A DNA stretch of 64,000 nucleotides, from the IMG/VR virus record IMGVR_UViG_3300021400_000932; one strand, written 5' to 3'. The stretch comes from a virus. Taxonomy: Duplodnaviria > Heunggongvirae > Uroviricota > Caudoviricetes. The notes beneath the pieces were generated by a model. The model saw only the letters and a program-made list of their open reading frames with translations, did not search any database and was not told the origin of the DNA. Positions 3,190 through 45,436 of the stretch are shown here, piece by piece. A program made the translations under genes and the position numbers. Numbering within the stretch: position 1 is the stretch's first letter; each line of letters begins with the position of its first letter.

Positions 3190-3270
3190 TGGTGCGCCTG
3201 ACAGGACTCGAACCTGCACCCTTGCGGACTAGAGCCTAAATCTAGCGTGTATGCTTTCCACCACAGGCGC
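3190..3270 (-). tRNA. tRNA-Leu (anticodon TAG), type II
   Basis: Acceptor GCGCCTG/CAGGCGC, anticodon stem-loop CTAGA-TTTAGGC-TCTAG, variable arm, T-arm GCAGGTTCGAGTCCTGT, CCA encoded; D-loop lacks the GG dinucleotide. Confidence 0.7.
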
Positions 3271-3279
3271 ACATCTTAT

Positions 3280-3477
3280 TTATCCAATATCTCTATCATA
3301 AGTAGTTTTATCACAGTTCGGACATTTCATATAAGTGAAAAATTCTACGCACGGCGGAGAAATGTGGAGCTCAGCATCACTTCTATTCGCATACCACTCA
3401 CACCCACAATGTTTGCAAGTAAAATGAAACTCACCGGTCTTAGACTTGGTTACATCCCCCGATTTGACGATATTCAT
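3280..3477 (-). CDS. small zinc-ribbon protein
   Basis: CKHCGC...C...CPNC; two CxxC pairs in 65 aa. Confidence 0.5.
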   Translation of the reverse strand: MNIVKSGDVTKSKTGEFHFTCKHCGCEWYANRSDAELHISPPCVEFFTYMKCPNCDKTTYDRDIG

Positions 3478-3980
3478 AACAACTAACCTCGCTGTTCACC
3501 TAAGCATAAAGTTGTGCCGGATATTCCCCGCTCTATTCTCCGACTCCACCCCAATACACGCATTTGCCCATATCTGTGTCTTTACTGTCGTTTTTGTCGG
3601 ACAGGGTGGTATGTTTGTCAACTCAATACTTAGGATAGTCCCAAATTGCGTAGGCTTTATTGGCTTTGCATATTGGGCAGTATTTCGTACCATTTCACAT
3701 AGCACTTATCAGAGAGATTACTGTAGTTCCTCTCCATAAGATTTCAGCGCAGCACCTGCCCCTCCAGATGCCGAGTTTTATCCGTAACAAAACCAGACCT
3801 ATGTATTGAATTGACATTCTCTATCCACCACGCCGTACGCACATCATATAGCCCTCGGCGTAGCAGTCTGTGACCCCTCAAAGAGACGTGAGGTGCTTTC
3901 TTTGGCGGATTAGCTCGCCCCCGCCGGTCAGACATCGCCCTTTCATGCTTTGCCATCCTATAGTAAACCGACTTAGGTTT

Positions 3981-4056
3981 TGGTGTGCCGAGAGGGATTC
4001 GAACCCACGACCTGCGGATTAAAAGTCCGCTACTCTTCCGGCTGAGTTATCGGCAC
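3981..4056 (-). tRNA. tRNA-Lys (anticodon TTT)
   Basis: Acceptor GTGCCGA/TCGGCAC, anticodon stem-loop GCGGA-CTTTTAA-TCCGC, T-loop GGTTCGAATCC, CCA encoded. Confidence 0.85.
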
Positions 4057-4313
4057 ATAGATGTGAGGTTGGTAGTCATCCTTTTACTGCTGAGGGGGAC
4101 CCCACAACTCCCGTTTTCGAATGGGTCCGCACGGAGATTCCAAAAGGTGCGGATTTCGAAGTAGCTACTCTCCAGCTACAAGAAGAACGGTTTTACCAAA
4201 GGACTCACAACGCGATGTGAAAATCCTACCGACCGATAAGGGGATGATTTCTCGTTTACCATCCTAACGCCATCTTTTCGGCGACTAACCCAGGGCAGGT
4301 ATATGTTTCCCTT

Positions 4314-4400
4314 TGGTGCAAGTGAAGGGAATTGAACCCTTAATCCCAACAGGGCATGGGATTTTAAGTCCCACTTGTATGCCAGTTCCAACACACTTGC
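4314..4400 (-). tRNA. tRNA-Leu (anticodon TAA), type II
   Basis: Acceptor GCAAGTG/CACTTGC, anticodon TGGGA-CTTAAAA-TCCCA, variable arm CCC-TGTT-GGG, T-arm AAGGGTTCAATTCCCTT, CCA encoded. Confidence 0.85.
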
Positions 4401-5780: not shown

Positions 5781-6407
5781 TTATGCAGAAATTTCGTCTG
5801 CGGTAAGCGGAATTACGCGCGAAATGACGAATGGCACAGAAACTGTCAGGATGGCCCCTCCGGCCTGGTCCCCTGGACCTCTGTTCAAAGCACCAATCCA
5901 AGTACCAGGACAACGGAGACCATGACGCAGATTACCTTGTCCATCATAGCGAAGGAAGTAAACCTGCTTCATATACTCTGTAGGTAATCCCATTCTTTCG
6001 GTTGCAGGGTCATACACCTGACGTCTCCACTCTTCGAGAGCTCCGAGAACATTAGGCTCACAGAAGCAGTTAAGAGTCCAAGTGACATCATCGAAGTTGA
6101 CCTTAGACGGGAATTTGATTAGACCATTACCGTAGTGTACTGTGATGATATCTTCACTCTCTGAGATATCACCGATTTCTGCGGTAGACAGGGTTAATAG
6201 GTCGGAATTTTCTGTCGGGCTGGAACCATCCATGTTGTAGATTCTTACCTCAAAGTTGTTAGTGGTCAGAGGTACATAGTTATCTACACCCAACATATGG
6301 TTTGTACGTTTGTGTTTAGCGGAATTTCGCAAGGATTCCGTTGTTGTAGCTCTCCGGAAACTACCTTTTACCTTTCGATAAAAGACCAGACTATTTGTTA
6401 ATCTCAT
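5781..6407 (-). CDS. hypothetical protein (first gene of a long minus-strand operon)
   Basis: 208-aa ORF starting at the divergent intergenic region 6408-6840. Confidence 0.5.
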   Translation of the reverse strand: MRLTNSLVFYRKVKGSFRRATTTESLRNSAKHKRTNHMLGVDNYVPLTTNNFEVRIYNMDGSSPTENSDLLTLSTAEIGDISESEDIITVHYGNGLIKFPSKVNFDDVTWTLNCFCEPNVLGALEEWRRQVYDPATERMGLPTEYMKQVYFLRYDGQGNLRHGLRCPGTWIGALNRGPGDQAGGAILTVSVPFVISRVIPLTADEISA

Positions 6408-14279: not shown

Positions 14280-15212
14280 TCACACATAAGATATTTCCAT
14301 AGTGGCTGCAGCATCCGGACATAAAAGAGAATATCCGAAAAATGAATAAATCCCTGTGTTTTCGAACTGCTTGTCAATCAGTCTTTCATAATCCACATGA
14401 ACAGGGCCAAATCTAATCATCTCTAATGCAAACCTGTTGTCCATACCAACAATTACAGGGTATGGCATATTTGGACAAATAATTATCTTGGTATCTCCGC
14501 AATAGTAATTGTTATCTTTGAGTGTGATTGCCGAACCTAAATAATTCTGCAGTGATTCAAGCTCAGAAGATGAACAAATCATAGTTGATAATTTATATCC
14601 GTTTTTAGCATATAGTGATTTTGTAAATTTAGTTATGATACTATGTATATTATGTTTACCGACACATTCACAATCATTAAGCAGTTCCACAGCAGCAACA
14701 AGCTGGCATTTTGAAATATAACAACCAATTTGTTGTAATACCTTAGTTAATGTGGAGATTCTTTGAAATCTCAATGGTTCATATGCTGCATTAAGATTTC
14801 TGCCACATTTTCTTCTTGTGACTAAATCATGGTATGTACGCATACGCAATGATGCTTGTTTGTTATCCGATTCAGTATAAACGGAGCGGTAATCCATTCC
14901 ATTTGCATCAATAGTGTTTGCAACAATGTCCTGCACAACACTATTTTCATCAATGCCGATTTGTACACATCTTCTTACATACTCAGGGAACAGAACCGCT
15001 GAGTTGCTTGTTGCGAAGAATTTCTCTACTGTGTCGCTACTATTGCCACTTACTTTAATGTCAAATCTCTTTAGCTGGCGTGAAAAAGCATCCAAATCCT
15101 GTAAAGTTGTTCCATAGTAATTCTCGGATGGGTCCATGCTTTCTAATACATCGCTAAGGTTTCCGGCTTCATACATACCCTTTTCTAAAGTTATGCTATC
15201 AAAATTACTCAT
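14280..15212 (-). CDS. hypothetical protein
   Basis: 310-aa ORF. Confidence 0.5.
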   Translation of the reverse strand: MSNFDSITLEKGMYEAGNLSDVLESMDPSENYYGTTLQDLDAFSRQLKRFDIKVSGNSSDTVEKFFATSNSAVLFPEYVRRCVQIGIDENSVVQDIVANTIDANGMDYRSVYTESDNKQASLRMRTYHDLVTRRKCGRNLNAAYEPLRFQRISTLTKVLQQIGCYISKCQLVAAVELLNDCECVGKHNIHSIITKFTKSLYAKNGYKLSTMICSSSELESLQNYLGSAITLKDNNYYCGDTKIIICPNMPYPVIVGMDNRFALEMIRFGPVHVDYERLIDKQFENTGIYSFFGYSLLCPDAAATMEISYV

Positions 15213-17505: not shown

Positions 17506-17958
17506 TCAGAAAAGCATCTCTTCAAGCCTGCGTGCTTTTTCCTCAGCTTGTTTCAGCCAGGTTTCATATCTATCCAGCCAATAACCTCGTTCCATAGAGA
17601 GCATTTCCAGCAACTCTTCATCGCTTGCATCGGACAAAGGCAAATGTCCGCTACAACGTGCAGACTCAGTAATTGTATCTGAATCAAACCAAACCCAACC
17701 CTCACAAACACCGACCAGGGTAAAGCCGTACTTTCCGAACAAATTTGGATATTTGGTATCCCAACCCAAGGCTGGGCTGCTCTGATTAACTGCATCAAGC
17801 AGTTCTTGTCTTGTCATATATTTCATAGTATTACTCTTCCAACAGACTCCCAATCGAAGCTGCGGTATTCTGAGCAAGTTTGACATCAACTTCACTCGGA
17901 ACCTGAATCCTATCGTCTGCAAGCAGAACAACCGAACCATAAACATCGCCATTTGCAA
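17506..17958 (-). CDS. hypothetical protein
   Basis: 150-aa ORF; its N-terminus overlaps the next gene, so the true start is probably internal. Confidence 0.4.
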   Translation of the reverse strand: MQMAMFMVRLFCLQTIGFRFRVKLMSNLLRIPQLRLGVCWKSNTMKYMTRQELLDAVNQSSPALGWDTKYPNLFGKYGFTLVGVCEGWVWFDSDTITESARCSGHLPLSDASDEELLEMLSMERGYWLDRYETWLKQAEEKARRLEEMLF

Positions 17959-18367
17959 TAATCGGAATCACCAAAGATGCCGGTCGGCAATTAGCATCGA
18001 ATGTCGGACGAACGACATTATCATGACTGTATGTGTATTGTCTTCTGCTTTCGATGACAGTTTCGAGTTCATTTGAGATAGTCTGTTCAATGTATTGTCG
18101 CTTACTTACTCCGGAAACAGCTACTACTGAGTCTCTGTCAGTAATCAAAACAGAGTGCGAACTTAGCGATTCAAGTACATTTGCAAACTTGCCGACAAAA
18201 GATGATAGAGAACTGATTGGATGATACTTCTTGTAAATAATAGCACCATCCTCAACATAGATTTCCAGAGGGTCACCCTCTCTAATCCTTAAAGAACGGC
18301 GTATCTCCTTCGGAATTATAACTCTCCCGAGGTCATCAATTCTACGAACAATTCCGGTTGCTTTCAT
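17831..18367 (-). CDS. spoVT: SpoVT-like transcriptional regulator (AbrB-type N-terminal domain + GAF-like C-terminal domain)
   Basis: 178 aa. N-terminal MKATGIVRRIDDLGRVIIPKEIRRSLRIREGDPLEIYVE closely resembles Bacillus SpoVT (recalled from memory, not database-checked). Length and two-domain layout also match. Confidence 0.75.
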   Translation of the reverse strand: MKATGIVRRIDDLGRVIIPKEIRRSLRIREGDPLEIYVEDGAIIYKKYHPISSLSSFVGKFANVLESLSSHSVLITDRDSVVAVSGVSKRQYIEQTISNELETVIESRRQYTYSHDNVVRPTFDANCRPASLVIPIIANGDVYGSVVLLADDRIQVPSEVDVKLAQNTAASIGSLLEE

Positions 18368-18379
18368 GATATATACTCC

Positions 18380-18709
18380 TTATTCAAAAGTTTCTGTCAA
18401 AGATAGAACATAAGTCAGCAGATTTTCGGCATCAATCAGCTTACACACTATGCCCATATCCTCTGCTGTTGTAACACTATGTCCATACCAAATTTCTGCT
18501 TTTTCTACATAGCGCTTTGCCTTAGCTAAGGAATCTCGGAAATCCTCAATGGTCTTAACTTCATCACATTTCTTGATTAAAATGCCATCCTCAGCAGCAC
18601 AAAATTCAAATTCATCATTTGTCCTAAGACCTAGTGACTTTCGGATATCTTCTGGAATCTGGATTCTTCCTGTAGCATCAATATGCCTTGTTACTGGTGC
18701 ATCTTTCAC
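18380..18709 (-). CDS. AbrB/MazE-family (SpoVT-AbrB swapped-hairpin) DNA-binding protein
   Basis: N-terminal TRHIDATGRIQIPEDIRKSLGLRTNDEFEF. Confidence 0.6.
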   Translation of the reverse strand: MKDAPVTRHIDATGRIQIPEDIRKSLGLRTNDEFEFCAAEDGILIKKCDEVKTIEDFRDSLAKAKRYVEKAEIWYGHSVTTAEDMGIVCKLIDAENLLTYVLSLTETFE

Positions 18710-21116: not shown

Positions 21117-21300
21117 CCACACGACTAAAGTCGTGGGATTCTTGCTTCAACGACTACGGCGAGCGTTTTACTCAAAGAGTTCAGCTCGACTTACACAATC
21201 TCCACAAGCTAGATTAAAGAGTTCCCGTGTGCCCCACGGTGCTCTGTGTATTAATAGAGGTTAAGCTATCATAGCCAACCCTTTAGTTAATATATTCATA
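21117..21300 (-). ncRNA. putative TnpB omega/right-end guide RNA (3' end of tnpB plus right end)
   Basis: Structured ~145-nt right-end segment downstream of the tnpB stop, ending in the terminal hairpin; by analogy to characterised IS605 TnpB systems. Confidence 0.4.
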
Positions 21301-22355
21301 GCGGCATTGACATCTCTGTCGTGATACTCTCCGCACTCGGGGCAAGTCCACTTTCGTATAGCTAAATTCTTAACTAATGGATTTTTATATCCGCACTTGT
21401 TACACAACTGACTGCTCGGATAGGTAGTAGGCACTCTCTGTACTGTCCTGCCGTACCAGGCAGCTTTGTATTCAAGCATTGTAAAAAACTTAGACCACGA
21501 AGCGGAGGATATACTTTTAGCCAGCTTGTGATTTTTGAGCATATTTTTGATTTTCAAGTCTTCTACACAGATTACTTGGTTTTCGTTAATCAGTGTAGTT
21601 GAAAGCTTTTGCAAAAAATCATTTCGCTGATTAGATACCTTCTCGTGGACTTTAGCTACTCTTAGTCGTTGCTTATCTCTGTTATGGGAGTCAACCTTCT
21701 TTCTGGAAAGTTTTCTTTGTTCTCTGCGTAATTTTCTTTGTGTTCGTTCTAACCTTTTGTGATTAGGTACAGAATTACCGTTACTGTCGGAATAGAAATC
21801 TTTTATGCCGACATCTATACCAATAACGGAATCTATTCTGTCTAAAGGTTGAGGTTCAAAGTCAATGTTAAGAACAGCAAAATACTTTCCTGTAGGTGTT
21901 CTCTCTACAGTAACATTATTAATATGACCTATATTCATTGACTGTTTGACTTTAATATAGCCAAGCTTTGGTAACTTTAGTTTATTGCCGTCAATGCGAA
22001 TATTATTACCTTGATTAAGAGTTCTGTAACTCTGGCGATGGTTATGTTTACTTTTGAAACAAGGATATCTGCCTAACTTCTTAAAGAAGTTTTGATACGC
22101 TCGGTCTAAATCCCTGAGAGATTGTTGCAGAGCAATACTATCAACTTCCTTAAGAAAGGAAAAGTCATCTTGCATTTTCATAGAGGTGAGCATAGCAGAA
22201 GTAGCGGTATAGTTAGCTTTATTACCTAACTTGTATTGTTCAATTCTGTATGCTAAACCTTTGTTGTAAATGAATCGAACACAACCAAGAGTGCGGTTTA
22301 TTATGTTTTGCTGTTCCCGATTGGGATAGATACGAAACTTTACACCTTTGTTCAT
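21261..22355 (-). CDS. tnpB: TnpB (IS605 OrfB-family RNA-guided nuclease)
   Basis: 364 aa; RuvC-like motifs ([10 protein letters not shown]) and C-terminal zinc finger CNKCG...CPECG. Confidence 0.85.
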
Positions 22356-22364
22356 TACAAACTC

Positions 22365-22781
22365 CTATGGTCTTGTTTTCTGGGTATTTACATACCACTG
22401 TATTGTTTCAGAGCTTACATTACCGGCAGTAGAAACAAAGTAACTTCTAGTCCAAAGACTAGGCATAGCACTGAGTTCGTTAAATTCTTTGCGAAGTATC
22501 ACTGAGGATGCACCTTTAATGTATTGCATGATTTGTGGAATTGATTGTGTAGGTAAAGCACTTACAAAAATATGAACGTGGTCTACATGACATTCTAAAG
22601 CAAGAATTTCAATCTTTTGTTTTTTGCACACCGCTAAGGTTAATTCCTTGAACCGTTCTTCAACTCCTTTAATATTGAAGATTTTTCTACGGTAGCGAGG
22701 GCAAAATACAAAATGATAGTTAATCAATGATACTGTTGTTTTTGTGTGTTTATATATATTCTTCATATATATATTATACAA
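22365..22781 (-). CDS. tnpA: TnpA (IS200-like Y1 HuH transposase)
   Basis: INYHFVFCPRYRRKIF and HVDHVHIFVSALP (HuH) motifs; ~130 aa. Confidence 0.85.
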   Translation of the reverse strand: MYNIYMKNIYKHTKTTVSLINYHFVFCPRYRRKIFNIKGVEERFKELTLAVCKKQKIEILALECHVDHVHIFVSALPTQSIPQIMQYIKGASSVILRKEFNELSAMPSLWTRSYFVSTAGNVSSETIQWYVNTQKTRP

Positions 22782-25434: not shown

Positions 25435-27027
25435 TTATGTATTTGAAATGTCGGATACCTGTGTTGGGATATCTGTAGTAGGAACGTCATTCACATGAAC
25501 CGCTACATTATCACCGCCAAGTGCCTTAGCACCGAACAGACCGACAAGCAGGGACTTGAGGTCAAATCCCATAGATTCGCTCAGACCATCATTAACCTGA
25601 GTCAGTCCGTTGATAATCTGTCCGGTAAACTGACCTGCATCACCACCAAAAATCTTGATGGAATCAACAGAACTGAATCCACCTGCGATAGCCGAAGCAA
25701 TTTCCGGCAGCTTGTCAAAGTAGGCAACTGCCGCATCGAGAACCATCTGTTTCTGTGCAGCTTCGCCATACAGAGCCATAGCCTCAGCCTTTTCTTTCAA
25801 ACCTTCAGCCTCAGCAATCAGCTTAGCCTTTGCGGCCTCAGCCTCTGCATTACCTTTGGCGCGGATAGCATCAGCTTCTGCTAAACCAGCAGCACGAATA
25901 GCCTCTGCATCCTGTTCCTTTGCGAAACGTTCAGCCTCCGCAGATGCCTTTTTAGCCGATGCACTCTGCTGTGCCTCATACATCTGAGCATCTGCATCCT
26001 GCTGGCGCTTGTACTTCTCAGCTTCTGCATTACGCTGTTCTGTGTAAAGTTCAGCATCAGCTTCCTGCTGTGCAGCAAACTTATCAGCTTCTGCTTTCTT
26101 CTTGATTTCGGCTTCAAGTCTACGCTCAGTAATCTTTACCTCACGTTCTTCAAGTTCAATCTGCTTTTCCTGACGAGCAAGGTTCGCATCAGCTTCTGCA
26201 ATTTCCTTGGACTTGCGCTGATTCTCAGCCTCAATGCCCTTGGCCGCCTCTGCCTTTGCAATCTTGATGTCCTGCTGTTCCTTGAGTTCAGCCTGCTTGA
26301 TAGCAAGCGCATTCTCTTTAATAGCAATTTCAGTCTGGGCCGCAATCTCAGCATCATTAGCTTGCTTCTGTGCATCCGCCTGAGCAATAGCTACCTCTGC
26401 CCTTGCGCGTGCTGCAGCAATAGAGGCATCCTTTTTAATCTGTTCAGTATTCTCAATACCGAGATTGTCAATAACCCCATTCTGGTCAGAGAAGTTCTGA
26501 ATATTAAAAGTAGTGAGCTTAAGACCCATATCTCGAAGATTCGGACTGACATTCTCAGTAATCTTCTCAGCAAGTACTTTCTTATCTCCGCGAATTAAAT
26601 CAGTCAGCGGAATCTGAGAAATGATTTCACGAATGTTACCCTCTAAAATCGGGGTAATTTCAACCCGAATTTCTTCTGTAGTACGACCTAGGAATTTAGA
26701 AGCCGCAATCTTCAGAACCTCTGGGTCTTGGTCAATAGACATATTGGCTACAGCATCGACACGAATATTGATTGCATCCTGTGTCGGAATCTCACTCTTA
26801 GAAACAAAGTCAACCTGAATGTTTTCGAGTGACATAAAGTCCACTCTCTGAAAAAATGGGATTACAAATTTCGCCCTACCGATATAAGTCTTTGCACCTC
26901 TCGGACCAGTAACAACCATAGCTCGGTTGGGTGGGCATTTTCGATAGCACACCTTAAAGATAAGGACCAACAGAAAAAGAACTACAATGCCTGCGATAAC
27001 TGGGGTAAGAATTTGCCATGGAACCAT
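25435..27027 (-). CDS. flotillin-like SPFH/band-7 protein (FloT/YqiK-like)
   Basis: N-terminal transmembrane helix, SPFH core (NRAMVVTGPRGAKTYIGRAKFVIPFFQRVDFMSLENIQVDF), long Ala/Glu-rich coiled coil (AEAE repeats), C-terminal domain; 530 aa. Confidence 0.8.
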   Translation of the reverse strand: MVPWQILTPVIAGIVVLFLLVLIFKVCYRKCPPNRAMVVTGPRGAKTYIGRAKFVIPFFQRVDFMSLENIQVDFVSKSEIPTQDAINIRVDAVANMSIDQDPEVLKIAASKFLGRTTEEIRVEITPILEGNIREIISQIPLTDLIRGDKKVLAEKITENVSPNLRDMGLKLTTFNIQNFSDQNGVIDNLGIENTEQIKKDASIAAARARAEVAIAQADAQKQANDAEIAAQTEIAIKENALAIKQAELKEQQDIKIAKAEAAKGIEAENQRKSKEIAEADANLARQEKQIELEEREVKITERRLEAEIKKKAEADKFAAQQEADAELYTEQRNAEAEKYKRQQDADAQMYEAQQSASAKKASAEAERFAKEQDAEAIRAAGLAEADAIRAKGNAEAEAAKAKLIAEAEGLKEKAEAMALYGEAAQKQMVLDAAVAYFDKLPEIASAIAGGFSSVDSIKIFGGDAGQFTGQIINGLTQVNDGLSESMGFDLKSLLVGLFGAKALGGDNVAVHVNDVPTTDIPTQVSDISNT

Positions 27028-27246: not shown

Positions 27247-27543
27247 TTATTCTTGTTCAAATTTAGATGGGTCGATGTCACACAGAGCTTGCAGAGCTTC
27301 GGATACTTTGTCAGCTTTTTCACCATAACCACCGATAACCGAAGCAACAGCGCACACCCAAGCATCCGCACTCACTTCTTCTTTCCCCAGAGCCTGCCAA
27401 AACTCATCACAAGCGTCAGTAAGTTCTTCGCACTCTTGCTTTAGGTCAGAATTTGTTTTGATGATTGCCTTAGCTTTATCAAGGATTATCTGCTTTAATG
27501 AATTGAAATATGCACTTCTGTACATTTCTGTGAGAGCATCCAT
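27247..27543 (-). CDS. hypothetical protein
   Basis: 98-aa ORF. Confidence 0.4.
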   Translation of the reverse strand: MDALTEMYRSAYFNSLKQIILDKAKAIIKTNSDLKQECEELTDACDEFWQALGKEEVSADAWVCAVASVIGGYGEKADKVSEALQALCDIDPSKFEQE

Positions 27544-27558: not shown

Positions 27559-28233
27559 TTATTCTACAATAAAAATATATCTGCTGCCTTTTCTTTCATA
27601 GAAAAGACCGTTAAAAGTATAACCTCTTGTTATTGCTTTTACGTCCTGTTCGGTATGACCGCCACCATAATTTGCCTCTTTGTCTGTTTTTGTGTCTATT
27701 TTCGTGATTGTATAATACTGCTCACCATCTATATCATGAGAACCATATACTTTATCTAAAAACTTTTTCTCAAAAGAAGTCATATACTTGAATACATCTG
27801 TCGGTTTCTTGATTTTTCTCATATCAATCTTTTCTTTTACAACTTCAACAGATTCAGACGGAGATTCAAGTTCAACTACCAAAGTATTTGGAGTTTCCAT
27901 ATACACATCAGACAATCCCCACTCAGCACCATCCGGATAGTCGCCATCCATATTAAGAGCTTGAACTAATGAATCCGCAAATTCAACTATATCATCTTTC
28001 GTAAAGAACTGTTCTGGGTCTACATCATATGCACCACCATAGTTAGCTGCATACACTTTGCCATGCTCCAAATAGGAATCTATCATAGACTTTACATGCT
28101 CTTCTGATTCTCCATACTGAACGTGACCTTTATCATCTACAAAGTAACACTTCTGAGGTGGAGTATCTTCCATCCCTATACTGTATCCCTTATATGTACC
28201 TATTTCTGAATTTGCTTTGATTACTCTTTTCAT
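27559..28233 (-). CDS. hypothetical protein with shared N-terminal motif MKRVIKANSEI
   Basis: 224 aa; its N-terminus is shared with the next two genes. Confidence 0.5.
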   Translation of the reverse strand: MKRVIKANSEIGTYKGYSIGMEDTPPQKCYFVDDKGHVQYGESEEHVKSMIDSYLEHGKVYAANYGGAYDVDPEQFFTKDDIVEFADSLVQALNMDGDYPDGAEWGLSDVYMETPNTLVVELESPSESVEVVKEKIDMRKIKKPTDVFKYMTSFEKKFLDKVYGSHDIDGEQYYTITKIDTKTDKEANYGGGHTEQDVKAITRGYTFNGLFYERKGSRYIFIVE

Positions 28234-28234
28234 A

Positions 28235-28789
28235 TCATTGTTCCTCTTTCTCCAACGGCGTCTTAAACACAGCTATCAAAGAATCTATGGTCGCTATAGT
28301 GTTATCAGACAGCAACATATTTTCTTTATTTTTGTTGTACCAGCTATATGCGGTAGACTCTGGGTCCTTTGCGGAAAAGCTATGCCAATCACAAAGCATT
28401 TCATATATAGCCGGTTCAGACATATCAAGAGGTCTGTACTTTGGTTCATCAGTGTCCTGTATTAACACCCAATATTGCCAATGGTGCTCATTGGCATTCT
28501 GGTGATGCACCCAAGCTAAATCAAAGGCATCTTTAGCCTCACCCTCATCCGGATGGTCACCATAGAACCACTCCGCATAAGCATTATATTCTTCTTCATC
28601 TGTTTTGGATGCATCATGAGCTTTCATACGGAAGTCCAATTCCTGTAACTCTTCTTCATCAATTCCCTGCTCAGCTAAGTACGGTCTTAAAATTTCAGAC
28701 CAAGCTCGCTGTACATTGCGGATATGGGAAAAGAGGTATTCGTCGTATTGCTGAAAAATATCGGAACTCGCTTTAATTACTCGCATCAT
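28235..28789 (-). CDS. hypothetical protein with shared N-terminal motif MMRVIKASSDI
   Basis: 184 aa. Confidence 0.5.
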   Translation of the reverse strand: MMRVIKASSDIFQQYDEYLFSHIRNVQRAWSEILRPYLAEQGIDEEELQELDFRMKAHDASKTDEEEYNAYAEWFYGDHPDEGEAKDAFDLAWVHHQNANEHHWQYWVLIQDTDEPKYRPLDMSEPAIYEMLCDWHSFSAKDPESTAYSWYNKNKENMLLSDNTIATIDSLIAVFKTPLEKEEQ

Positions 28790-28792
28790 GCT

Positions 28793-29056
28793 TCAATCTT
28801 CCTTTGGTTCTATTTCATCATATTCCTGAAGGAGCTGATTCAGCAACACAGTATGATTCTTTTCATCGGAAATAATTTCTTCTATTACCGCAAGCTGTTC
28901 ATCAGTCGCACCTACATCCTTCAGACAGGACAAAAGAACCTCATAATTCTTTATGGCGTCCTGTTCGCTCTGATTGTTCTCTGCAATCAATGCAGCAATA
29001 GAATTTTTGGATTTGTCATCATACTGCTTATCAGCGCCAAGAATAAATCTATACAT
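28793..29056 (-). CDS. hypothetical acidic protein
   Basis: 87 aa; starts MYRFILGADK. Confidence 0.4.
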   Translation of the reverse strand: MYRFILGADKQYDDKSKNSIAALIAENNQSEQDAIKNYEVLLSCLKDVGATDEQLAVIEEIISDEKNHTVLLNQLLQEYDEIEPKED

Positions 29057-29071
29057 ACAAAAATTACTCCC

Positions 29072-29530
29072 TTAAAATTCACCTACATAGTATGTGCTGT
29101 CATCGACATAGGTAGCTAGACCATCGGCACACATACCCTCTAAGGCTTTAAGCATCTGGAATGTAGACAAACCAATCTTGTTTGCGGAATAAGTTAATCC
29201 ACCAGGTTGATTTGCTTTTGCTATTGCCTTAGATATCTTCTGACCTTTATAAGTTCTGTATATCAAATCGCCATACTTCTTAGCTTCAACTTCACCGAAC
29301 CCGCGAGAGAAGTAACTATCTATATTCTCATATACCATATCGACAACCTTTTCAATGTCATCGTCGTTAAGACCTGGAATTTCTTTCCAAGCCAGTTCTC
29401 GAATCTCGGCATCAATATTATGTGCTTGTGCATCCTTGTAATTGACGATATTCATAACATCATTGAATATGTTATGAGCATACTTGTCAACATCCTCTAT
29501 GGTCAAACTTGCTTTTACATATCTATACAT
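29072..29530 (-). CDS. hypothetical protein with shared N-terminal motif MYRYVKASLTIED
   Basis: 152 aa. Confidence 0.5.
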   Translation of the reverse strand: MYRYVKASLTIEDVDKYAHNIFNDVMNIVNYKDAQAHNIDAEIRELAWKEIPGLNDDDIEKVVDMVYENIDSYFSRGFGEVEAKKYGDLIYRTYKGQKISKAIAKANQPGGLTYSANKIGLSTFQMLKALEGMCADGLATYVDDSTYYVGEF

Positions 29531-32671: not shown

Positions 32672-35551
32672 TTAGGTATAATTTGTAAGGTCTGTCTGAG
32701 GAGGAAGTGCAATAAGGTCAATGGTAATCTTCTGAATTGTTCCTGCTGGAGTAATGTAGATTTTGCCCACGCAGCTATTGGCCTTGACCGTGCCGATGGC
32801 ATCAAAGTCATTACCAATAACAACCTTGTAATCTCCGATAGCTCCGGCATTCTTCATAGAATCGAGGATAGGAGTTACGCCAACATAGAAGCTAGAGAAA
32901 GCTGCTTGGTTGGTATACTGGAATGTGATGGAGATACCTACCTTGTATACTACATTCTTGATGGCATTGACCAACAGACGAGTCGATAGATTTCTCAGAG
33001 CCTGATAGGTTGCAGGCGGATTCTCATACAGAGTGGAGTCACCCCATACGCTTAAACCGAGGTCGGGAATATTAGCGATAGCATTGACGCCAACACCACC
33101 CTCAGTATCGGGGTCAGGCTGCCACTTATCGAGATACTTCTTAGATACAGTGTAATCCATCTTACCGATTCTTACATTGTTCTTTCTCGAAGTTGGCTGA
33201 ATCCACTCATACTGCAAGCTCTGGTTCAGAACCATAGACCTCTGGATTAACAATGCGAGGAAAGAAGGAGAAGCGATGTTCTGCTTGTTAGTTCCTACAT
33301 AGATGTAGTTACCCCAAGGTCCGAACAGTGCTGCATGGGTAGAACGCAGACCATCCATACCGGAATCATATCTTGCCAATCTCTGAGCATAGCCGGTTTC
33401 AGCAGGCTGCTGAGAAGAATTGGTTACATATACCTTAGAAAGACTTCTCGGAATATCGAGATATGCAGTAGCACAACGAGAACCATAAGCAACATCCATC
33501 AGCTTAGTCTGGAGCGGAGATGGAGTCATCATATTGTGCGGATACTTGTCATCACCTGTTACAAACAAGAAGTCTTGGTCATCCCAACCTGGGCTAATCA
33601 ATCTATTCGGATTGTATGCTAACTTATCTGTCAGCAGACCGTATACAGGCAAGCAGTTAGTGAATAACCACTCTCTATAAAGTAAAGTCTGCGCAGTAGT
33701 AGAATCAATCGGAGAAGATATAACTTTTGTACCGTCCAAGATAGTTTTGTTGTACATGTCACAGAATGTCGATAGATAAGCAGTTTGCGCAAACCAGTCA
33801 GTAACCTTGCACTTTACTTTGTATGTGTATTCCTCAGTTGTTGTAAACTTGGCAACACCAGCAGCAGTAAAGATAATATTAAGTTTATTTTCCGAAATCG
33901 TATAATGCGTATTCTTCTCAAGTCCTGGAGCACTACCAACAGGCTCGCCATCATGAATCGGAGATGAGTCATCAGCATTTATAGCTACACCATTATGTTT
34001 GGAATAGTACTTAATATTTAAAGTTGGCGCGCCCTTGTCATAGTATTTATTCGACTCCCAAGTTGGCGCACTCGCTCCAGAAGGCACAGCCACATAGTTA
34101 CCGCTTAAATCCTTTTCATAGTAACTAGTATAGGTTGTAGCCCAGTCATCAGGTTCAGAAGTAAGCAAAGTATATTTAGTATGAGATTCCAGAATATCCT
34201 TAGAAATCGTAATATTTACGTCATCATCAGACTCTTTCTTCTTTGGATTCTCACCATAACGGCTACCGACATAAGCAATAGTATCTATCAAGCATTTTGC
34301 GATATCGGTTTCAGCAGTTTTGTCTGAACCGCCCGCAAATTCAATCCATGTATTCACATTATCAACATCCGTTTGTCCATTTGCCGCAGCAAAAACGGTA
34401 TCTTCACTAAGACCCTCTGCAACAATATTAACGAACTGAGACTGAACCTCTCCTACATATGGAATGTTGTCAGTCGAATTTGTGATATCAAATGTGAATA
34501 TCATATTTTCAACTGCAAGTCTTACACCAGAAGCATCCTGAATATAGGTGATGAGGTTCCAATACTTCTGACCTCTGCTCTCCATCTTATTGAGAGAACA
34601 ACGAATGTTATTACCGAATGTGCCTGGGTACTTAGCAGTTAAAGTAAGAGAACCTGTTTCTTCAGCCTTACCAGTTTTCGGATTTACTGCGCGAATGTCT
34701 GTAGAATAGGTAATGGTAATAGAATCATCTGCCATAATTCCTACAGATTCCCATGTGGGATAATCGGTTCTGTAGTAAGTGTTTTCAGCGAAAGTAGGTG
34801 CGGAATCACCACTGAGCGGAGTATATGTATCGCCGGACTTGGAATAATATGATTTCCATTTAGTGCTCCAATCCTCCGGTGCTGCTTCAAGAACAATAAA
34901 TGGACGCTTGAACTTAACAACTATTGTTTCTCCAGTTTTGCTGTACTCAAGCCACTTTTTGCTTTCCGCAGTTTGCTTCCCATCCTTATCCAACTTAATC
35001 TCACGATAATTCGAATTGAAATTAGGATTAGTAGATGTACAAATAAAACTATGTTCATCATTCGGTTCTCGATTCAATGCGAATGTTGCAATGCTTACAG
35101 AATCATTTATATTTACGTTTTTCGCATCATCAGAATCTTCGACAACATCACGCTTGATACTATTACTCATATTGCCGACTGCGGCAATACCTGGCGAAAC
35201 TCTACAAACAAGAACATCATAACCAGCAGTAAGCAGCGAAACAGCCATTTGGTAGGAATAATCCTGAGCTAGACGATAGTTAGCGGCCGCACCACGATAG
35301 GTGGACACAAAAGATTCAAGACCCTGAGAATTTGCTTTGAATCTCGTCCATACAATATCTTCGATAGCCTGCTCATCAGCACTTGCTGAAGATACAGTAA
35401 TTTTGCCTGTTTTGCCATCCATCACCTTTTCAGAACCAAGATATGCAGGTCCCCAACTTGCGGTAATCGGCAGAGCAACACAACAGTATGAATTATCGCC
35501 TATGACATACGAATAATTTTGGGATATTTCATTAATTAAAATATCTGCCAT
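32672..35551 (-). CDS. tail sheath protein (959 aa, with insertion domains)
   Basis: N-terminal ILINEIS...VALPITASWGPAYLGSEK matches the sheath N-terminal consensus (compare P2 FI LEINEG...TASDAD). C-terminal SVWGDST...GKIYITPAGTIQKITIDLIAL matches the sheath C-terminal domain (P2 FI RFWGNRT...GKLYIDYDYTPV). Confidence 0.8.
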   Translation of the reverse strand: MADILINEISQNYSYVIGDNSYCCVALPITASWGPAYLGSEKVMDGKTGKITVSSASADEQAIEDIVWTRFKANSQGLESFVSTYRGAAANYRLAQDYSYQMAVSLLTAGYDVLVCRVSPGIAAVGNMSNSIKRDVVEDSDDAKNVNINDSVSIATFALNREPNDEHSFICTSTNPNFNSNYREIKLDKDGKQTAESKKWLEYSKTGETIVVKFKRPFIVLEAAPEDWSTKWKSYYSKSGDTYTPLSGDSAPTFAENTYYRTDYPTWESVGIMADDSITITYSTDIRAVNPKTGKAEETGSLTLTAKYPGTFGNNIRCSLNKMESRGQKYWNLITYIQDASGVRLAVENMIFTFDITNSTDNIPYVGEVQSQFVNIVAEGLSEDTVFAAANGQTDVDNVNTWIEFAGGSDKTAETDIAKCLIDTIAYVGSRYGENPKKKESDDDVNITISKDILESHTKYTLLTSEPDDWATTYTSYYEKDLSGNYVAVPSGASAPTWESNKYYDKGAPTLNIKYYSKHNGVAINADDSSPIHDGEPVGSAPGLEKNTHYTISENKLNIIFTAAGVAKFTTTEEYTYKVKCKVTDWFAQTAYLSTFCDMYNKTILDGTKVISSPIDSTTAQTLLYREWLFTNCLPVYGLLTDKLAYNPNRLISPGWDDQDFLFVTGDDKYPHNMMTPSPLQTKLMDVAYGSRCATAYLDIPRSLSKVYVTNSSQQPAETGYAQRLARYDSGMDGLRSTHAALFGPWGNYIYVGTNKQNIASPSFLALLIQRSMVLNQSLQYEWIQPTSRKNNVRIGKMDYTVSKKYLDKWQPDPDTEGGVGVNAIANIPDLGLSVWGDSTLYENPPATYQALRNLSTRLLVNAIKNVVYKVGISITFQYTNQAAFSSFYVGVTPILDSMKNAGAIGDYKVVIGNDFDAIGTVKANSCVGKIYITPAGTIQKITIDLIALPPQTDLTNYT

Positions 35552-36005: not shown

Positions 36006-36656
36006 TTAGTTTCCTTTCTCTAATCTTGACAAATTTTCTTCCAAAAACTCATGTCGAACCGGAACTACATGGTCGAAACTAATGTGTTTCATTCTTACCG
36101 CCTTATAGGATACCAGTATACAACCCTCACAAGTTAATGGGATTATTGATTGATAAAGTTTACCGCCCTCTAAGTATTCAAATGTTCCGGATGTACTCTG
36201 CACATCGGAATCCGGCGAAATTGTAACTCCGAATCTTATCTTCCTATCAGCTTCATATGGGAGCTTTATAGTGAGATAATACATATTGATATACTTGAAT
36301 AAAAACTCTCTTGTAATCTCGTCTAAGTCAGCAGTATTTGTCGCCAAGATAGTAAGATTGTAATTGAGCTTTATCGGGATTACTCGTTCATAGTACAAGT
36401 AATTGGTTTCTTTGTCCATTACCGCAAGTTGACCTCTGTGCATCTGAGTGAAGTTTGTTCTTGCGGAATCTATGGTAAATGGGTCTTCCCTCGTCAGAAC
36501 TACGAGAGGAAATGTTATTTCATCATTTTGTATCTGCGCAGCTATATTGATTGCCGCCTCTGGATTGACAACTCGTATAGCGGGGGTCTCACCAGGCTCT
36601 ACGTCGAATGAATCTTTAATATCATCGGCGATTGCATCATCATATAAATAAAGCAT
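36006..36656 (-). CDS. hypothetical virion (neck/tail-completion?) protein
   Basis: 216-aa ORF immediately upstream of the sheath gene. Confidence 0.4.
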   Translation of the reverse strand: MLYLYDDAIADDIKDSFDVEPGETPAIRVVNPEAAINIAAQIQNDEITFPLVVLTREDPFTIDSARTNFTQMHRGQLAVMDKETNYLYYERVIPIKLNYNLTILATNTADLDEITREFLFKYINMYYLTIKLPYEADRKIRFGVTISPDSDVQSTSGTFEYLEGGKLYQSIIPLTCEGCILVSYKAVRMKHISFDHVVPVRHEFLEENLSRLEKGN

Positions 36657-36657
36657 A

Positions 36658-37203
36658 CTACACTTCCTTATCTACCTTAGTGGTGTAATAGTCACCTCGG
36701 AAATCTGTATTAGATTTTAAGAAGTGGTTAGATTTGTTAAATGTATTGGCTCTCTCAGTCTTAGTTCTTCCAAGTAACTGTGTCTTATCATATACCGGAA
36801 CAATCTTGCACACAATATGGTCTGGTGCTTGCAAATCATAAGATATTTCCGTTACTCGGAATATCCTTTCCGGTAACTCAGAATACTGACCAGCGATACT
36901 GAATATGGCATCCTTTTGAACCTGCGGTAAATACCAAGAACAGTGTATCAGGAATGGCAAATCCTCATGGTTTTCAACTACCCAACCGAATCGCTTTAAT
37001 GTTTTAGCCTTTGGGTTACTTTCAAAAAATATAAAAGTATCAATCGGGTCGGAATAGCTGTCTACAAGACTTTCACCTTGAGTATTGGTATCCGGAATTA
37101 TGGGAAACTGAAACTTGCATGGTATTCCTCGCATCTCAAGAGCTTCCTCATAACGCTTTCGGAACAATTTAATGTCTGATTGAATTAAATTAGCCATATT
37201 CAA
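36658..37203 (-). CDS. hypothetical virion protein
   Basis: 181-aa ORF, 1-nt spacing to neighbours. Confidence 0.4.
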   Translation of the reverse strand: MNMANLIQSDIKLFRKRYEEALEMRGIPCKFQFPIIPDTNTQGESLVDSYSDPIDTFIFFESNPKAKTLKRFGWVVENHEDLPFLIHCSWYLPQVQKDAIFSIAGQYSELPERIFRVTEISYDLQAPDHIVCKIVPVYDKTQLLGRTKTERANTFNKSNHFLKSNTDFRGDYYTTKVDKEV

Positions 37204-37821
37204 TCACCTGCTGTATTCTTCTATGATGTCAGATATGTTGAGCACATAGTCTCTTAGGAAACTCCAATCGAAATGCTTTTCTTCACTTATTGCAGTAATA
37301 TTGATTGCTGTTCCACCCATCAACGCATTTTGAAATTCATCTGTTCTGGCTCTGTATGTATTGTTAATCCAATCCGGATGGTCCTTTATCTTAAAGGCGG
37401 TAACAAAATACTCTGGGTCTTTCTCAGTATCAAACAAAGTAGGTTCGGAAATAAGCATATATCGTATCTTGTCATAGCCTAACTTATCTAATGTAATGAG
37501 ATATTCTATTACATCTCCTGGCAAAGTGCCGAGAACATCATATGTGATAAGAAAACCGAATCTACGAAGCTCTGACAATATTTCTTCCGGAGTCAATAGA
37601 GGGATTGACGGATTTTCAACATCAACGCCAGTGCCATCTACAAGATATGCGAACAAACAACCATATTTCTTATGAGTAACCCGCACCACCGTACCATGAA
37701 GTCGGTCATCCACAATCTGAATACCAGAAGCTCTTAGGTCTTGGTCATAGTTGGACAGACATCGATTTAATTGCAGCCAAGATGTTATTTTGTATTTTAA
37801 TGTTCTTGACACTTTCAACAC
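37204..37821 (-). CDS. hypothetical virion protein
   Basis: 205-aa ORF. Confidence 0.4.
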   Translation of the reverse strand: MLKVSRTLKYKITSWLQLNRCLSNYDQDLRASGIQIVDDRLHGTVVRVTHKKYGCLFAYLVDGTGVDVENPSIPLLTPEEILSELRRFGFLITYDVLGTLPGDVIEYLITLDKLGYDKIRYMLISEPTLFDTEKDPEYFVTAFKIKDHPDWINNTYRARTDEFQNALMGGTAINITAISEEKHFDWSFLRDYVLNISDIIEEYSR

Positions 37822-37832
37822 CTCAATATTTT

Positions 37833-38156
37833 TTAGATAACAGACTCTGCGAATTCACGAAGTTCATTCTGAAATCCGGTGAGCGTTTCTGTAGAAGATT
37901 CTGGATATTGCGCAAAATACTGACTGATTAAATCCAACTTCAACTCGAAGTATAACTGATTGAGTTCAGAAACGGATAAATCTTCTTTGTGTTTCTCTCG
38001 GAATATGAAATACCTTGTTATGACTGAAGAAAAGGATTTATGTGCTTTTGCATCATCCGCAGACAAGTCAGCAGTAAGCAATGTTTTGAAATTTGTACTA
38101 TTGTATTGTTTCAACTCGCGGAAAAACATATTTTCCAGTTCTTTTGCAGTCTTCAC
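37833..38156 (-). CDS. hypothetical protein
   Basis: 107-aa ORF. Confidence 0.4.
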   Translation of the reverse strand: MKTAKELENMFFRELKQYNSTNFKTLLTADLSADDAKAHKSFSSVITRYFIFREKHKEDLSVSELNQLYFELKLDLISQYFAQYPESSTETLTGFQNELREFAESVI

Positions 38157-38174
38157 AGTTTGAAGCCCTCCCCA

Positions 38175-39689
38175 TTATAGTGTAGTTTCTTCAGTTTCCG
38201 AAGAAACATCCAGAGCTGTATCGGATATAGTTGCACTAGTCTTTGGCATACACTCACCAAGAATCTCTGACAATGCTATCTTAAACACCTCTGGCTTATC
38301 TACTCTAAGACTTTTCAGCAAATCAACAAGTGTGGAAGATTGCGTAATAGCCATATCGCGCTTATCAAACTGCAATGCACTCATTTCAGTAAGAATCGGC
38401 TGCATATGCAATTCGAACTTGTTTTCGTATCGAGAATGACCCTTTGCCACAAAATACTTGTTTAATGCATCAGTCCATCCGGCCATATATGCGGTTTCTA
38501 TTCGTTGCAAGGAGTTTGCATACAAAGCAGACCGCTGCGACATTACAGCACCGGCACCGCCAAGACCTTCAGCAGAAGAGAAGTTCAATGCCTCTTTCGG
38601 AATTCCCAGAACAGACAATTTCTTATCCTGATAGTAATTCAATAACTTATCAGCATTCTCAGAATCATCTTTCATGTTAAGGTCAGTAACAGATACAGCA
38701 TCTTGTCCGTTGACCTTTGGTATGTAAATCAAATTATTTGGCGACTGTGGGTTCAAGAAACTCTGGGTGTCGCCAGTATCTGTATTAAGAGAAAGCTGTT
38801 GCTGTATTGCATCCTTTATTTGTTGTAAGTTATCTCGGATTTCTTCTTCCTCTGTAGTGGTTCCGCAATCGACATTTATAAATCTTACAACTTTTACCAG
38901 AGATGACAAAATTGATGCATCTTCAAGCAGGTTCAGTATTTGTGTAGGTTGCAATGCCGCTTCTAACAATGGGTCTGCAAACTGAATATCATATACTGCG
39001 TCATTTCCATCTTTATCTCTTACAGCTATTTGATAATCACCAAGTAAACCACCGAGAGCAAAGTGAATAATGGACTGTTCAGGATAAATTACAGAACTTG
39101 ATGGCAAATAAGAAGTTTTTCCTTTTTGTTCTTCTGTAGGAGAAAGAATAAATCCTTTTCTTTCTCCTTGTTGCCAAACATGTATTACATCATCAGCAGG
39201 AATTTTTGTAGATGGTATGATATCATAACCATTGTCCGGAACGGTATTTGTATCAAGTGCAACACCAACATTCATATGTCGTGTTGACAAATCCTTATAC
39301 AAATCCGTTGTCGGTAAATACAAATTTCCTGTTGTAGCTAATTCAAGTATGTGGTCTCTTGCATATGCATTAATATTCCATTTACGGAATAATGCGTTTA
39401 TCAGTTCTGCCGCATCTTTCGGACCATCCGGAACCGTAGTAGCCCAAATTATCTGTCCGGATGAATTTGGAATTGTGGCGTCGGTCGCATAATAGGATAA
39501 AGCGGTTGCTACCTGAGAGTCCTTTGCCAAAGCTCGCATCTTATCAATAGTTGTCTTAATATCTGCGAGGTCTGAATCACTTTTTATGTCAGATAGGCGA
39601 TAAAAAGAACCACCAACGACACTTCTTAAAAATGACTGCGGCTTTGGACGCCGAACTACGGTCATAATCTTATCAAAAAATTTTGCCAT
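38175..39689 (-). CDS. putative portal protein
   Basis: 504-aa protein in the terminase-proximal position; CCTTATATAAT motif upstream; no diagnostic motif verified. Confidence 0.4.
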   Translation of the reverse strand: MAKFFDKIMTVVRRPKPQSFLRSVVGGSFYRLSDIKSDSDLADIKTTIDKMRALAKDSQVATALSYYATDATIPNSSGQIIWATTVPDGPKDAAELINALFRKWNINAYARDHILELATTGNLYLPTTDLYKDLSTRHMNVGVALDTNTVPDNGYDIIPSTKIPADDVIHVWQQGERKGFILSPTEEQKGKTSYLPSSSVIYPEQSIIHFALGGLLGDYQIAVRDKDGNDAVYDIQFADPLLEAALQPTQILNLLEDASILSSLVKVVRFINVDCGTTTEEEEIRDNLQQIKDAIQQQLSLNTDTGDTQSFLNPQSPNNLIYIPKVNGQDAVSVTDLNMKDDSENADKLLNYYQDKKLSVLGIPKEALNFSSAEGLGGAGAVMSQRSALYANSLQRIETAYMAGWTDALNKYFVAKGHSRYENKFELHMQPILTEMSALQFDKRDMAITQSSTLVDLLKSLRVDKPEVFKIALSEILGECMPKTSATISDTALDVSSETEETTL

Positions 39690-44884: not shown

Positions 44885-45188
44885 TATAGACCGCCTTTAT
44901 CTTATCCACTAGTTCAGATAATCCATCGGGTATCTCAGATTTAGACTTCTTTATATAGACGTCATAGAAACACTGTAAAGCATCTATTGACTTCGATAAT
45001 TCATCTAATGTGGGAATCCGTATCATTTCGCCGCCGGAATACTTACACAGCTTTATCAAAGATTCATGTCCTACAATAGAAAACAATTCAGGCAACCAAC
45101 TGTATTCAGGAACATCATGAAGCGGTGGCATTAACCCCAGCAGATAATGAAAGTCTAATTCTTCAGTAACTGGGAGTTTCATCGTCAA
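44868..45188 (-). CDS. hypothetical protein
   Basis: 106-aa ORF. Confidence 0.4.
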   Translation of the reverse strand: MTMKLPVTEELDFHYLLGLMPPLHDVPEYSWLPELFSIVGHESLIKLCKYSGGEMIRIPTLDELSKSIDALQCFYDVYIKKSKSEIPDGLSELVDKIKAVYNDRNN

Positions 45189-45436
45189 TAGTCCAATTCC
45201 TCTTCTTTAATAACTTCTTCTGATACAGCTATGCCACCATTGGATTCATTTTTAACAATTCTATAGTACACTACTGGGTTATTGTTATATTCCCCGTATT
45301 CAATGCAATCATTAACATACTTCTCTGCATTGTAAACATTATCAGAGACATCGCTATCATATTCACCATCTGCATACTCAATATCAACATTATAAGAAAT
45401 TACATATGCCGATGCAATAATTCTTTTCACAACCAA
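45185..45436 (-). CDS. hypothetical acidic protein
   Basis: 83-aa ORF. Confidence 0.35.
   Translation of the reverse strand: MVVKRIIASAYVISYNVDIEYADGEYDSDVSDNVYNAEKYVNDCIEYGEYNNNPVVYYRIVKNESNGGIAVSEEVIKEEELDY

Follow-up and report, generated by a model that had tools for sequence, protein, structure and literature searches.

We analysed a 64,000-nucleotide (nt) stretch of viral DNA (IMG/VR record IMGVR_UViG_3300021400_000932, hereafter the window), a large-myovirus genome fragment in which nearly all genes lie on the minus strand and in which three neighbouring genes for unrelated proteins begin with the same kind of N-terminal peptide, the leader. The leader is peptide-level, portable and disordered. 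As judged from sequence comparison, the window motif has diverged locally from a leader that is widespread among related viral contigs, and the leader matches the putative cleavage sites of the co-resident head-protease lineage and switches with them. It probably serves as a portable propeptide that combines a recognition and cleavage site for the prohead protease with a capsid-targeting tag of the kind used by phage T4. We favour this reading because the leader, the junction between protease and scaffold, and the capsid propeptide share the form [IV]-polar-[A/S]↓[S/A/T/G], in which the arrow marks the predicted cut. The genes in question are listed below (aa, amino acids; ORF, open reading frame).

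28233..27559, minus strand: 224-aa cargo gene, an ORF with N-terminus MKRVIKANSEIG, starting MKRVIKANS
28789..28235, minus strand: 184-aa cargo gene, an ORF with N-terminus MMRVIKASSDIF, starting MMRVIKASS
29056..28793, minus strand: 87-aa gene, an ORF with N-terminus MYRFILGADKQ
29530..29072, minus strand: 152-aa cargo gene, an ORF with N-terminus MYRYVKASLTIED, starting MYRYVKASL

A portable leader on unrelated proteins

An ORF check confirmed the coordinates, strand, lengths and N-termini given for these genes in a preliminary description of the window; the four are separated by 1-15 nt. The leaders are encoded at ~28210-28233 (MKRVIKAN, then S, in the 224-aa protein), ~28763-28789 (MMRVIKAS, then S, in the 184-aa protein) and ~29507-29530 (MYRYVKAS, then L, in the 152-aa protein). 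A six-frame scan for x-x-R-[VYFIL]-[IVL]-K-A returned five matches in 64 kb, three of which are the starts of the flagged ORFs; the other two are not starts, one (5385) lying out of frame within another gene and one (58275) being internal. By chance, about two matches would be expected across the six frames, and essentially none right after a start codon. A scan for the canonical form of the leader (type 1, below) gave no match in 176 kb of Streptococcus phage GXN1 and none in 400 kb of loci with the second group of head proteases (group 2, below), and on these counts a chance origin of the shared start was rejected.

When the first 12 residues of the window proteins were removed, no pair aligned (BLASTP, E > 0.1 for every pair), which bears out the earlier claim that similarity is limited to the N-terminus. 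The same description had drawn in a fourth protein starting MYRF, and it does belong with the set: the 87-aa window protein is homologous to an 88-aa protein of locus L028 (E 1.6e-11) that starts MKRYIKASDG, and its MYRF start is therefore a decayed copy of the leader. (L-numbers denote loci from related contigs in IMG/VR, ENA and Logan, and from the cultured phage GXN1.) All three window N-termini are kept in orthologues on three other contigs (ENA and Logan contigs, 112 and 190 kb among them). The possibility that the proteins are ordinary diverged paralogues was rejected on the lack of any pairwise alignment, the 55 clusters of the census given next, and the different predicted models of the 224-aa and 184-aa proteins.

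Related IMG/VR loci contain other, unrelated ORFs that start MKRYIKAS, MKRYIRAS, MKKYVKAS or MKRIIKNS. A degenerate DNA scan of IMG/VR with ATG-AAR-MGN-TAY-ATH-AAR-GCN-WS returned 43 matches; 18 of them fall inside members of a single conserved family, another is an ORF of 23 codons, and the remaining 24 are starts, reading MKRYIKA[ST], of different ORFs that have a Shine-Dalgarno sequence and lie mostly on contigs of 77-253 kb. Across all compared loci, the census came to 78 leader ORFs with a Shine-Dalgarno site, which form 55 BLAST clusters after removal of 12 residues. Their consensus is M-K-R-Y-I-K-[A/S]-[S/A] followed by polar residues, with Y in 68, I in 69, K in 71, A in 43 or S in 30, and then S in 41 or A in 19. 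The longest consecutive arrays comprise 11 leader genes in L025, where up to 11 tagged genes span 9 kb, six in L020, and five each in L022 and L047. No nucleotide or protein match for the window locus was found among 50,697 phage records searched for cultured relatives, and six variants of the motif string had no match in a literature text search. In L071, six paralogues with the N-terminus MKRYI[KR]SAIxxIxDED (+6465, +7055, +14372, +14629, +17554 and +18042) flank a head module of the first protease group (group 1, below), which suggests that there are leader sub-families with an extended conserved part.

The target of selection is the peptide, since synonymous codons vary: leader codons are near background usage (Tyr TAT 41 / TAC 27; Ile ATT 32 / ATA 20 / ATC 17; Arg AGA 45 / CGA 16), and upstream of the leader genes only the Shine-Dalgarno site is conserved. 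A DNA- or RNA-level element or a recombination box was rejected, as the start regions align poorly and synonymous sites vary. The leader is an add-on outside the fold, as seen from its low AlphaFold confidence and from the existence of DUF5662 proteins with and without it. A Sec, Tat or lipoprotein signal peptide, for which we looked for a hydrophobic core of at least 10 residues after the basic N-terminus and then a signal-peptidase site, was rejected on the polar residues that stand right after K-A-S and on the start of the fold at residue 10-11. The capsid and scaffold of staphylococcal phage 80alpha carry an L27/Prp-type N-terminal extension with the motif ...L-x-L-Q-F-F↓A-S; a Firmicute extension of this type was likewise rejected, its motif being absent from every leader.

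The cargo proteins themselves differ in architecture. The 224-aa protein comprises the leader, a small beta domain, a YGGAYD...IDMRKIK domain and a clade-specific C-terminal extension. Its AlphaFold model shows beta-hairpins and an alpha/beta domain, with a mean predicted local distance difference test (pLDDT) score of 35 over residues 1-9; at a pLDDT of 61, the model was too poor for a fold search. Homologues retain the leader and the YGGAYD/IDMRKI core, distant ones start MKRILRNS, MKRVIRGS, MKVIKES or MKKYIKSS, and the domain is also found within large acidic multi-module proteins. The multi-module YGGAYD proteins of L004, L006 and P0016 share a conserved basic motif, KWVNKGKEGTHGEFKTKKEADAQRKAMFANGF; two more modules recur, (F)GF..E..EYS.V....EVGAEVDYDG and a C-terminal ...SC/HITLVYHITG.

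The 184-aa protein matches DUF5662 (Pfam PF18907) over residues 14-172 (E 2.5e-30; 105.6 bits against a cut-off of 27), so that the leader falls outside the domain, which is all-alpha and has an invariant H-D pair. In its AlphaFold model (mean pLDDT 93) the first helix begins at residue 11 and residues 1-10 average 53; a PDB fold search found a weak resemblance to HD-domain hydrolases (all E > 1). About half of 49 DUF5662 homologues have the leader and the rest begin at the domain (MNPR..EY), and because some read leader-linker-MNPR, the leader is a discrete N-terminal addition. The 87-aa protein is helical and ferritin/rubrerythrin-like (weak Rubrerythrin match of the window copy, 0.049; Pfam Ferritin match of the L028 homologue, 6e-4). 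Orthologues of the 152-aa protein start VYRYVKASL and MYRYIKASL, and its C-terminal module PGGLxYxAN...LEALEGMC...DDSTY recurs in multi-module proteins, being common to L025 +5248 (302 aa) and L007 +8530 (482 aa). Leader remnants persist at internal junctions of such fused proteins: the module junction within L007 reads SSEDIKASMGRYDDYFGQ as against MKRYIKSNRDDEYFGQ at the start of the free gene, a junction in L017 carries TSLKRIVKEDS, and P0007 has a second, decayed leader copy, SSITANTDICQYK, after an inserted domain.

The preliminary description had proposed that these genes encode packaged, injected effectors with a targeting peptide that the prohead protease removes. Its portable peptide on unrelated proteins stood, as did the agreement in form between that peptide and predicted prohead-protease sites; for the effector part, one family-level hint emerged. 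This is a 161-aa protein of L052 that consists of a leader and, from residue 11, an ART-PolyVal domain (38.7 bits, cut-off 31.2), from which it appears that leader proteins may act as injected effectors.

Head protease, capsid protein and two leader types

In GXN1 and L004, a protease fused to a coiled-coil scaffold adjoins a Gp23-family capsid gene, and a homologous protease is encoded on the contig of L018, which has a type-1 leader. These proteases belong to the T4 gp21 family, as database homologues carry the precomputed domain PF03420 Peptidase_S77; a group-1 example from L066 scores 26.0 bits against Peptidase_S77, just below the 27-bit cut-off. Profile-guided scans gathered 43 protease loci and 79 capsid loci, the capsid-centred set overlapping the protease set. 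His and Ser are invariant in the protease-scaffold alignment, which falls into two groups.

Right after the protease domain, all 52 of the 52 non-redundant matched group-1 sequences have the junction x-[IVL]-[AS]-A-[ST]-[STA]-[DN], for example FTEIAASTD. The Gp23-family capsid proteins of group 1 have a basic, Glu-poor propeptide (for example MAIKKTTRRVTPSSITASS...SINAGTSITAAG...SAITAATNTSNI), and 3,020 residues of such propeptides contain 116 occurrences of [IVL]-x-A-[SAGTN], with SVKA↓S and AIKA↓S as instances, versus none of [IVL]-x-E-[SAGTN]. The group-1 proteases' own N-termini often read ...[IV]-K-[AS]-... as well (MKKSSVKAAD, MKNVKASS). In group 2, V-x-E↓S occupies the alignment column of the group-1 junction, and the capsid N-termini read MAKNLLE↓SY..LAE↓SV, with 20 h-x-E versus five h-x-A motifs; cutting after Glu is the classical gp21 grammar, and fits group 2 (PMC9026906). 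Set against these putative sites, the canonical leader M-K-R-Y-I-K-[A/S]↓[S/A] would read from P7 to P1' as M-K-R-Y-I-K-A↓S, and from the motif statistics we infer cutting after Ala or Ser.

A second leader (type 2) with the form M-K-I-x-K-L-x-E↓S, for which we scanned with M-[KR]-[ILV]-x-[KR]-L-x-E-[SDN], stands on large YGGAYD...IDMRKI-containing proteins of other contigs, which start MKINKLLES, MKIRKLHED, MSIKKLNES or MAKINLRES. Homologous YGGAYD cargo thereby bears a type-1 or a type-2 leader according to lineage. Near group-1 proteases we counted 16 type-1 and no type-2 leaders, and near group-2 proteases no type-1 and five type-2 leaders, three of the latter five being ~590-aa homologues of the window's portal, at whose starts a chance match to the pattern is possible. 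The capsid-centred set gave 26 type-1 leaders, five of a longer form, M(K)R(K)FTKYPSNY[VI]xA↓[SA], and no type-2 leader for group 1, and no type-1 and one type-2 leader for group 2. Thirteen contigs have a type-1 leader locus and a separate group-1 head module, in eight more a single locus contains the two, and a cross-reference of leader, protease and capsid loci by contig name found no contig in which a type-1 leader occurs with group 2. L004, L013/L102 and GXN1 combine type 2 with group 2. Several group-1 protease genes also have small leader ORFs (62-108 aa) a short way upstream, separated from the protease gene by a single conserved ORF of ~115 aa; this is roughly the position of T4 core genes 67 and 68.

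The closest cultured portal to that of the window is from Streptococcus phage vB_SagM-GXN1 (PQ819873.1), which is without a type-1 leader. Four of its small unannotated ORFs have a Glu-type leader, MRL[VI][KR]L[TN]E[SD], with the starts MRLVRLTED, MRLVKLTES, MRLIRLNED and MRLVKLNES (L062 +48803; L063 +32585, +32841 and +34401); three of them are just downstream of the major capsid gene.

Proposed role of the leader and rival explanations

In the mechanism that we propose, cargo would be synthesised with its leader, which would dock on the protease-scaffold core during head assembly; the protease would then cleave behind the small residue at P1 (Ala or Ser), so that 7-8 residues would be lost and the cargo released in the capsid, and the cargo would leave with the DNA at the next infection. 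Capsid targeting and injection of the leader proteins are proposed here by analogy with T4, whose capsid-targeting sequence is, as the preliminary description had suggested, the closest precedent (PMC9026906). We hold more tentatively, as a possibility somewhat short of probable, that a large uncultured T4-like clade (genomes of ~80-250 kb) switched the P1 residue of the gp21 family from Glu to Ala/Ser and so converged on the site of the herpesvirus protease assemblin, with MKRYIKA↓S loading dozens of unrelated proteins per genome.

Several observations weigh against the targeting propeptide. The window leaders are off-consensus, with Val for Tyr at P4 in two, Asn at P1' in one and Leu after the Ser in the third, which may reflect drift or a slightly different protease. 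None of the leader proteins matches a known virion protein family, leader arrays are often far from head genes, and the phage records searched hold no cultured phage with a type-1 leader or a group-1 protease. The contigs that pair leaders with head modules are phylogenetically related, and the co-variation counts are therefore not independent events. Searches with hidden Markov models retrieved neither an S77 protease nor a Gp23 capsid gene from the window or from L001, L002, L108 and L110 (flanks of ~26 kb), and of the 154 S77 proteases that a profile search found among 5.8 billion proteins, none came from the 190-193 kb sister contigs. The head and replication genes that the window does encode are as follows.

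38175-39689, in the minus-strand-dominated window: portal, T4-type (Portal_T4, E 1.1e-13)
32672-35551: sheath
Also encoded in the window: family A DNA polymerase, RecA-like protein and large terminase

A protease was sought near the portal, and the four genes between portal and sheath, together with six other candidates, had no Pfam or PHROG match. The genome of the window phage is ~193 kb (L110). L110, linked through the protein at 1711-2016, extends 8.3 kb past the left end of the window, and L108 extends 7.6 kb past the right end; neither extension holds head genes, and the left-end protein at 680-1381 has no exact protein match on record. In group-2 relatives (L088, L091, L095, L102 and L107), the protease-scaffold and Gp23 genes and ~4 kb lie between the portal and the homologues of 36658-37203/36006-36656. 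The matching window interval (the 36006-39689 region) holds only a 107-aa and a 205-aa gene, which suggests that the head module has moved elsewhere in the ~193 kb genome; in group-1 loci the portal is not beside the protease. The tail-tube-like protein of the window (5781-6407) is 83% identical to its counterpart on contig 3300028048_000002 and 78% identical to that of L045, and contig 3300028048_000002 carries at least 12 type-1 leaders (L019, L020, L030, L054) and a group-1 head module (L160). From this relatedness we infer that the window phage has a group-1-type protease.

A 158-aa protein of the window's phage, at 1675-2148 of L108 (~6 kb past the right end), starts MFIKKTNRQTSIMSAETIAGTS, resembling group-1 capsid propeptides (MAIKKTTR...), and its L032 homologue has the canonical-type start MKIYIRST. 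A 310-aa protein at 14280-15212 (minus strand) has a match to PHROG 3922 'major head protein' (E 1.8e-41); it is not Gp23-like, and a Gp23-type capsid would be expected in this phage. Its gene is surrounded by small genes and is distant from the portal. A 58-aa ORF at 61636-61812 (minus strand) repeats a stretch of the N-terminal region of this protein (RIKRFGIKVSGKSSDSIEKFF versus QLKRFDIKVSGNSSDTVEKFF).

It is rather unlikely that the leader is a substrate of the prohead protease and no packaging signal, its removal serving late trimming or activation in the cytoplasm, a timing switch or the creation of a new N-terminal Ser. The match between leader and protease site is silent on where cutting occurs, the distance of many leader arrays from head genes would suit a cytoplasmic role, and a 2026 preprint reports phage proteases that act on a cytoplasmic host immune protein (PMC12991175). 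However, a disordered tail of 7-8 residues outside the fold would hardly inhibit 55 unrelated folds, and N-terminal peptides of this kind are also borne by the capsid protein and the protease, as they are by the components of the T4 head core (PMC9026906). We give still less weight to the proposals that the leader is read by a factor other than the head protease (a host or phage chaperone, an enzyme that modifies N-termini, or a system for N-terminal degrons such as ClpXP) or that it boosts translation initiation. The basic-then-hydrophobic M-K-R-Y-I-K N-terminus is loosely like ClpX N-motifs, and A-rich early codons, which favour initiation, are present in that AAA makes up 82% of Lys codons at position 2 and 93% at position 6, versus 64% in gene bodies. 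Translation would not explain why R, Y, I, K and A/S are strictly conserved while synonymous sites are free, or the same tetrapeptide form at the protease-scaffold junction and in the capsid propeptide, and neither proposal accounts for a leader type that switches with the protease and capsid lineage on homologous cargo.

Least probable, and in our view very much so, is a shared start that is a by-product of cassette shuffling through 5' recombination homology, or a remnant of old paralogy. The arrays are hypervariable, and modules have been fused and split at leader positions, as in P0007 with SSITANTDICQYK; yet the starts have little DNA identity, with scrambled synonymous sites, which leaves little homology for recombination. 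The cargo bodies differ in fold and have no detectable similarity, and DUF5662 has gained or lost the leader as a discrete unit.

Other window features, significance and known systems

One more ORF may bear an atypical leader, an assignment that is uncertain; it has no homologue in any related locus compared.

45185..45436, minus strand: 83-aa ORF, known from sequence only, starting MVVKRIIASAY

About 530 nt downstream of the last leader gene lies a gene for a 530-aa SPFH/Band 7 flotillin-like membrane protein (25435-27027, minus strand), with a 98-aa gene (27247-27543) between the two; the flotillin-like gene is present in L002 and L003 and absent from L001. An IS200/IS605 pair occupies 21261-22781 (minus strand), comprising the Y1 transposase TnpA (22365-22781, E 6e-37) and a TnpB/OrfB protein with a Cas12f-like TNB domain (21261-22355). 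Eight tRNA genes (Asn, Asp, Leu x3, Lys x2, Gly) are interspersed with small ORFs at the left end (175-4400, minus strand). Two adjacent AbrB/MazE-fold regulators are encoded at 17831-18709 (minus strand), one with a SpoVT C-terminal GAF-like domain (E 1.5e-29), and this suggests a spore-forming Firmicute host.

The concept of a capsid-loading peptide is known from the T4 capsid-targeting sequence; what appear to be new are the tag and its scale, a Glu-type counterpart on homologous cargo, and the implied switch from Glu to Ala/Ser within the gp21 family. If our reading is right, the tag is to capsid cargo what a signal peptide is to secreted proteins, and the packaged, probably host-delivered 'hypothetical' genes of large gut and rumen phages could be listed from raw metagenomic sequence; anti-defence and host-takeover factors are expected among capsid-loaded proteins. 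It would also mean that the specificity of the gp21 family is not fixed on glutamate, and that tags and protease co-evolved, homologous cargo being re-addressed upon a change of protease. The evolution of head-protease specificity, including the herpesvirus parallel, would then be directly testable with peptides, and a tag of 7-8 residues, paired with the protease that matches it, would offer a compact tool, and a new orthogonal system, for packaging foreign proteins. GXN1, which is cultured and has Glu-type leader ORFs, is suited to testing the leader idea.

In T4, internal proteins have N-terminal propeptides of 10-19 residues that direct these proteins into the prohead core and that gp21 cuts off, possibly the means by which T4-like phages bring varied proteins into their capsids; a cleavage-type motif also lies near the N-terminus of gp21 itself, and the packaged protein Alt is an ADP-ribosyltransferase (ART) (PMC9026906). 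Like the capsid-targeting sequence of the internal T4 proteins IPI, IPII and IPIII, the leader is a short N-terminal peptide on unrelated small proteins that ends in a protease cleavage motif, here a predicted one. The likeness extends to the Peptidase_S77 protease and Gp23-family capsid of the clade, to the T4-like portal of the window, and to the ART domain of the L052 leader protein as compared with Alt. The two differ in sequence, MKRYIKA↓S as against MKTYQEFIAE in T4, and in P1 residue, predicted as Ala/Ser as against Glu. The tagged families are also far more numerous here (up to 11 in 9 kb; 55 clusters), and a function that has been demonstrated in T4 is proposed here by analogy. In phiKZ and SPN3US, a diverged homologue of gp21 processes many proteins of the head interior, acting at a short motif (PMC9026906, PMC5694885); in contrast to the leader system, these giant phages cut after Glu, and their propeptides are usually long and share no 8-residue N-terminal tag.

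Packaging and injection have been predicted for the polyvalent proteins (Iyer et al. 2017, PMC5512222), from which the ART-PolyVal domain is known. The 224-aa and 152-aa proteins have relatives that resemble these as modules in large acidic multi-domain proteins, in which methyltransferase and other modules occur as well. The window genes, in contrast, are single modules with their own leader rather than proteins with at least two disparate effector domains, no zincin-like MPTase domain was seen, and the processing that we propose would be carried out by the head protease at leader-like junctions.

The herpesvirus protease assemblin (S21) offers a parallel in the cleavage site itself. In human cytomegalovirus the site is YVKA↓S, and the general rule is (V/L/I)-x-A↓S. 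The leader fits this pattern, in which P4 is Tyr, P3 a branched aliphatic residue, P2 Lys/Gln, P1 Ala and P1' Ser/Thr; the pseudorabies virus sites are YLQA-T and VQA-S (PMC4498786). The herpesvirus enzyme has homologues in the phage prohead proteases, gp21 among them (PMC9026906). The phage protease is moreover fused to a coiled-coil scaffold and has a putative site at the protease-scaffold junction, as in herpesviruses. It differs in belonging to the gp21 family (PF03420) rather than to S21, and its specificity is predicted from motifs. To our knowledge, herpesviruses do not use the assemblin site as an N-terminal tag on many cargo proteins. Because the proteases associated with it are Peptidase_S77, the phage leader would be best described as working like the assemblin system rather than as a member of it.

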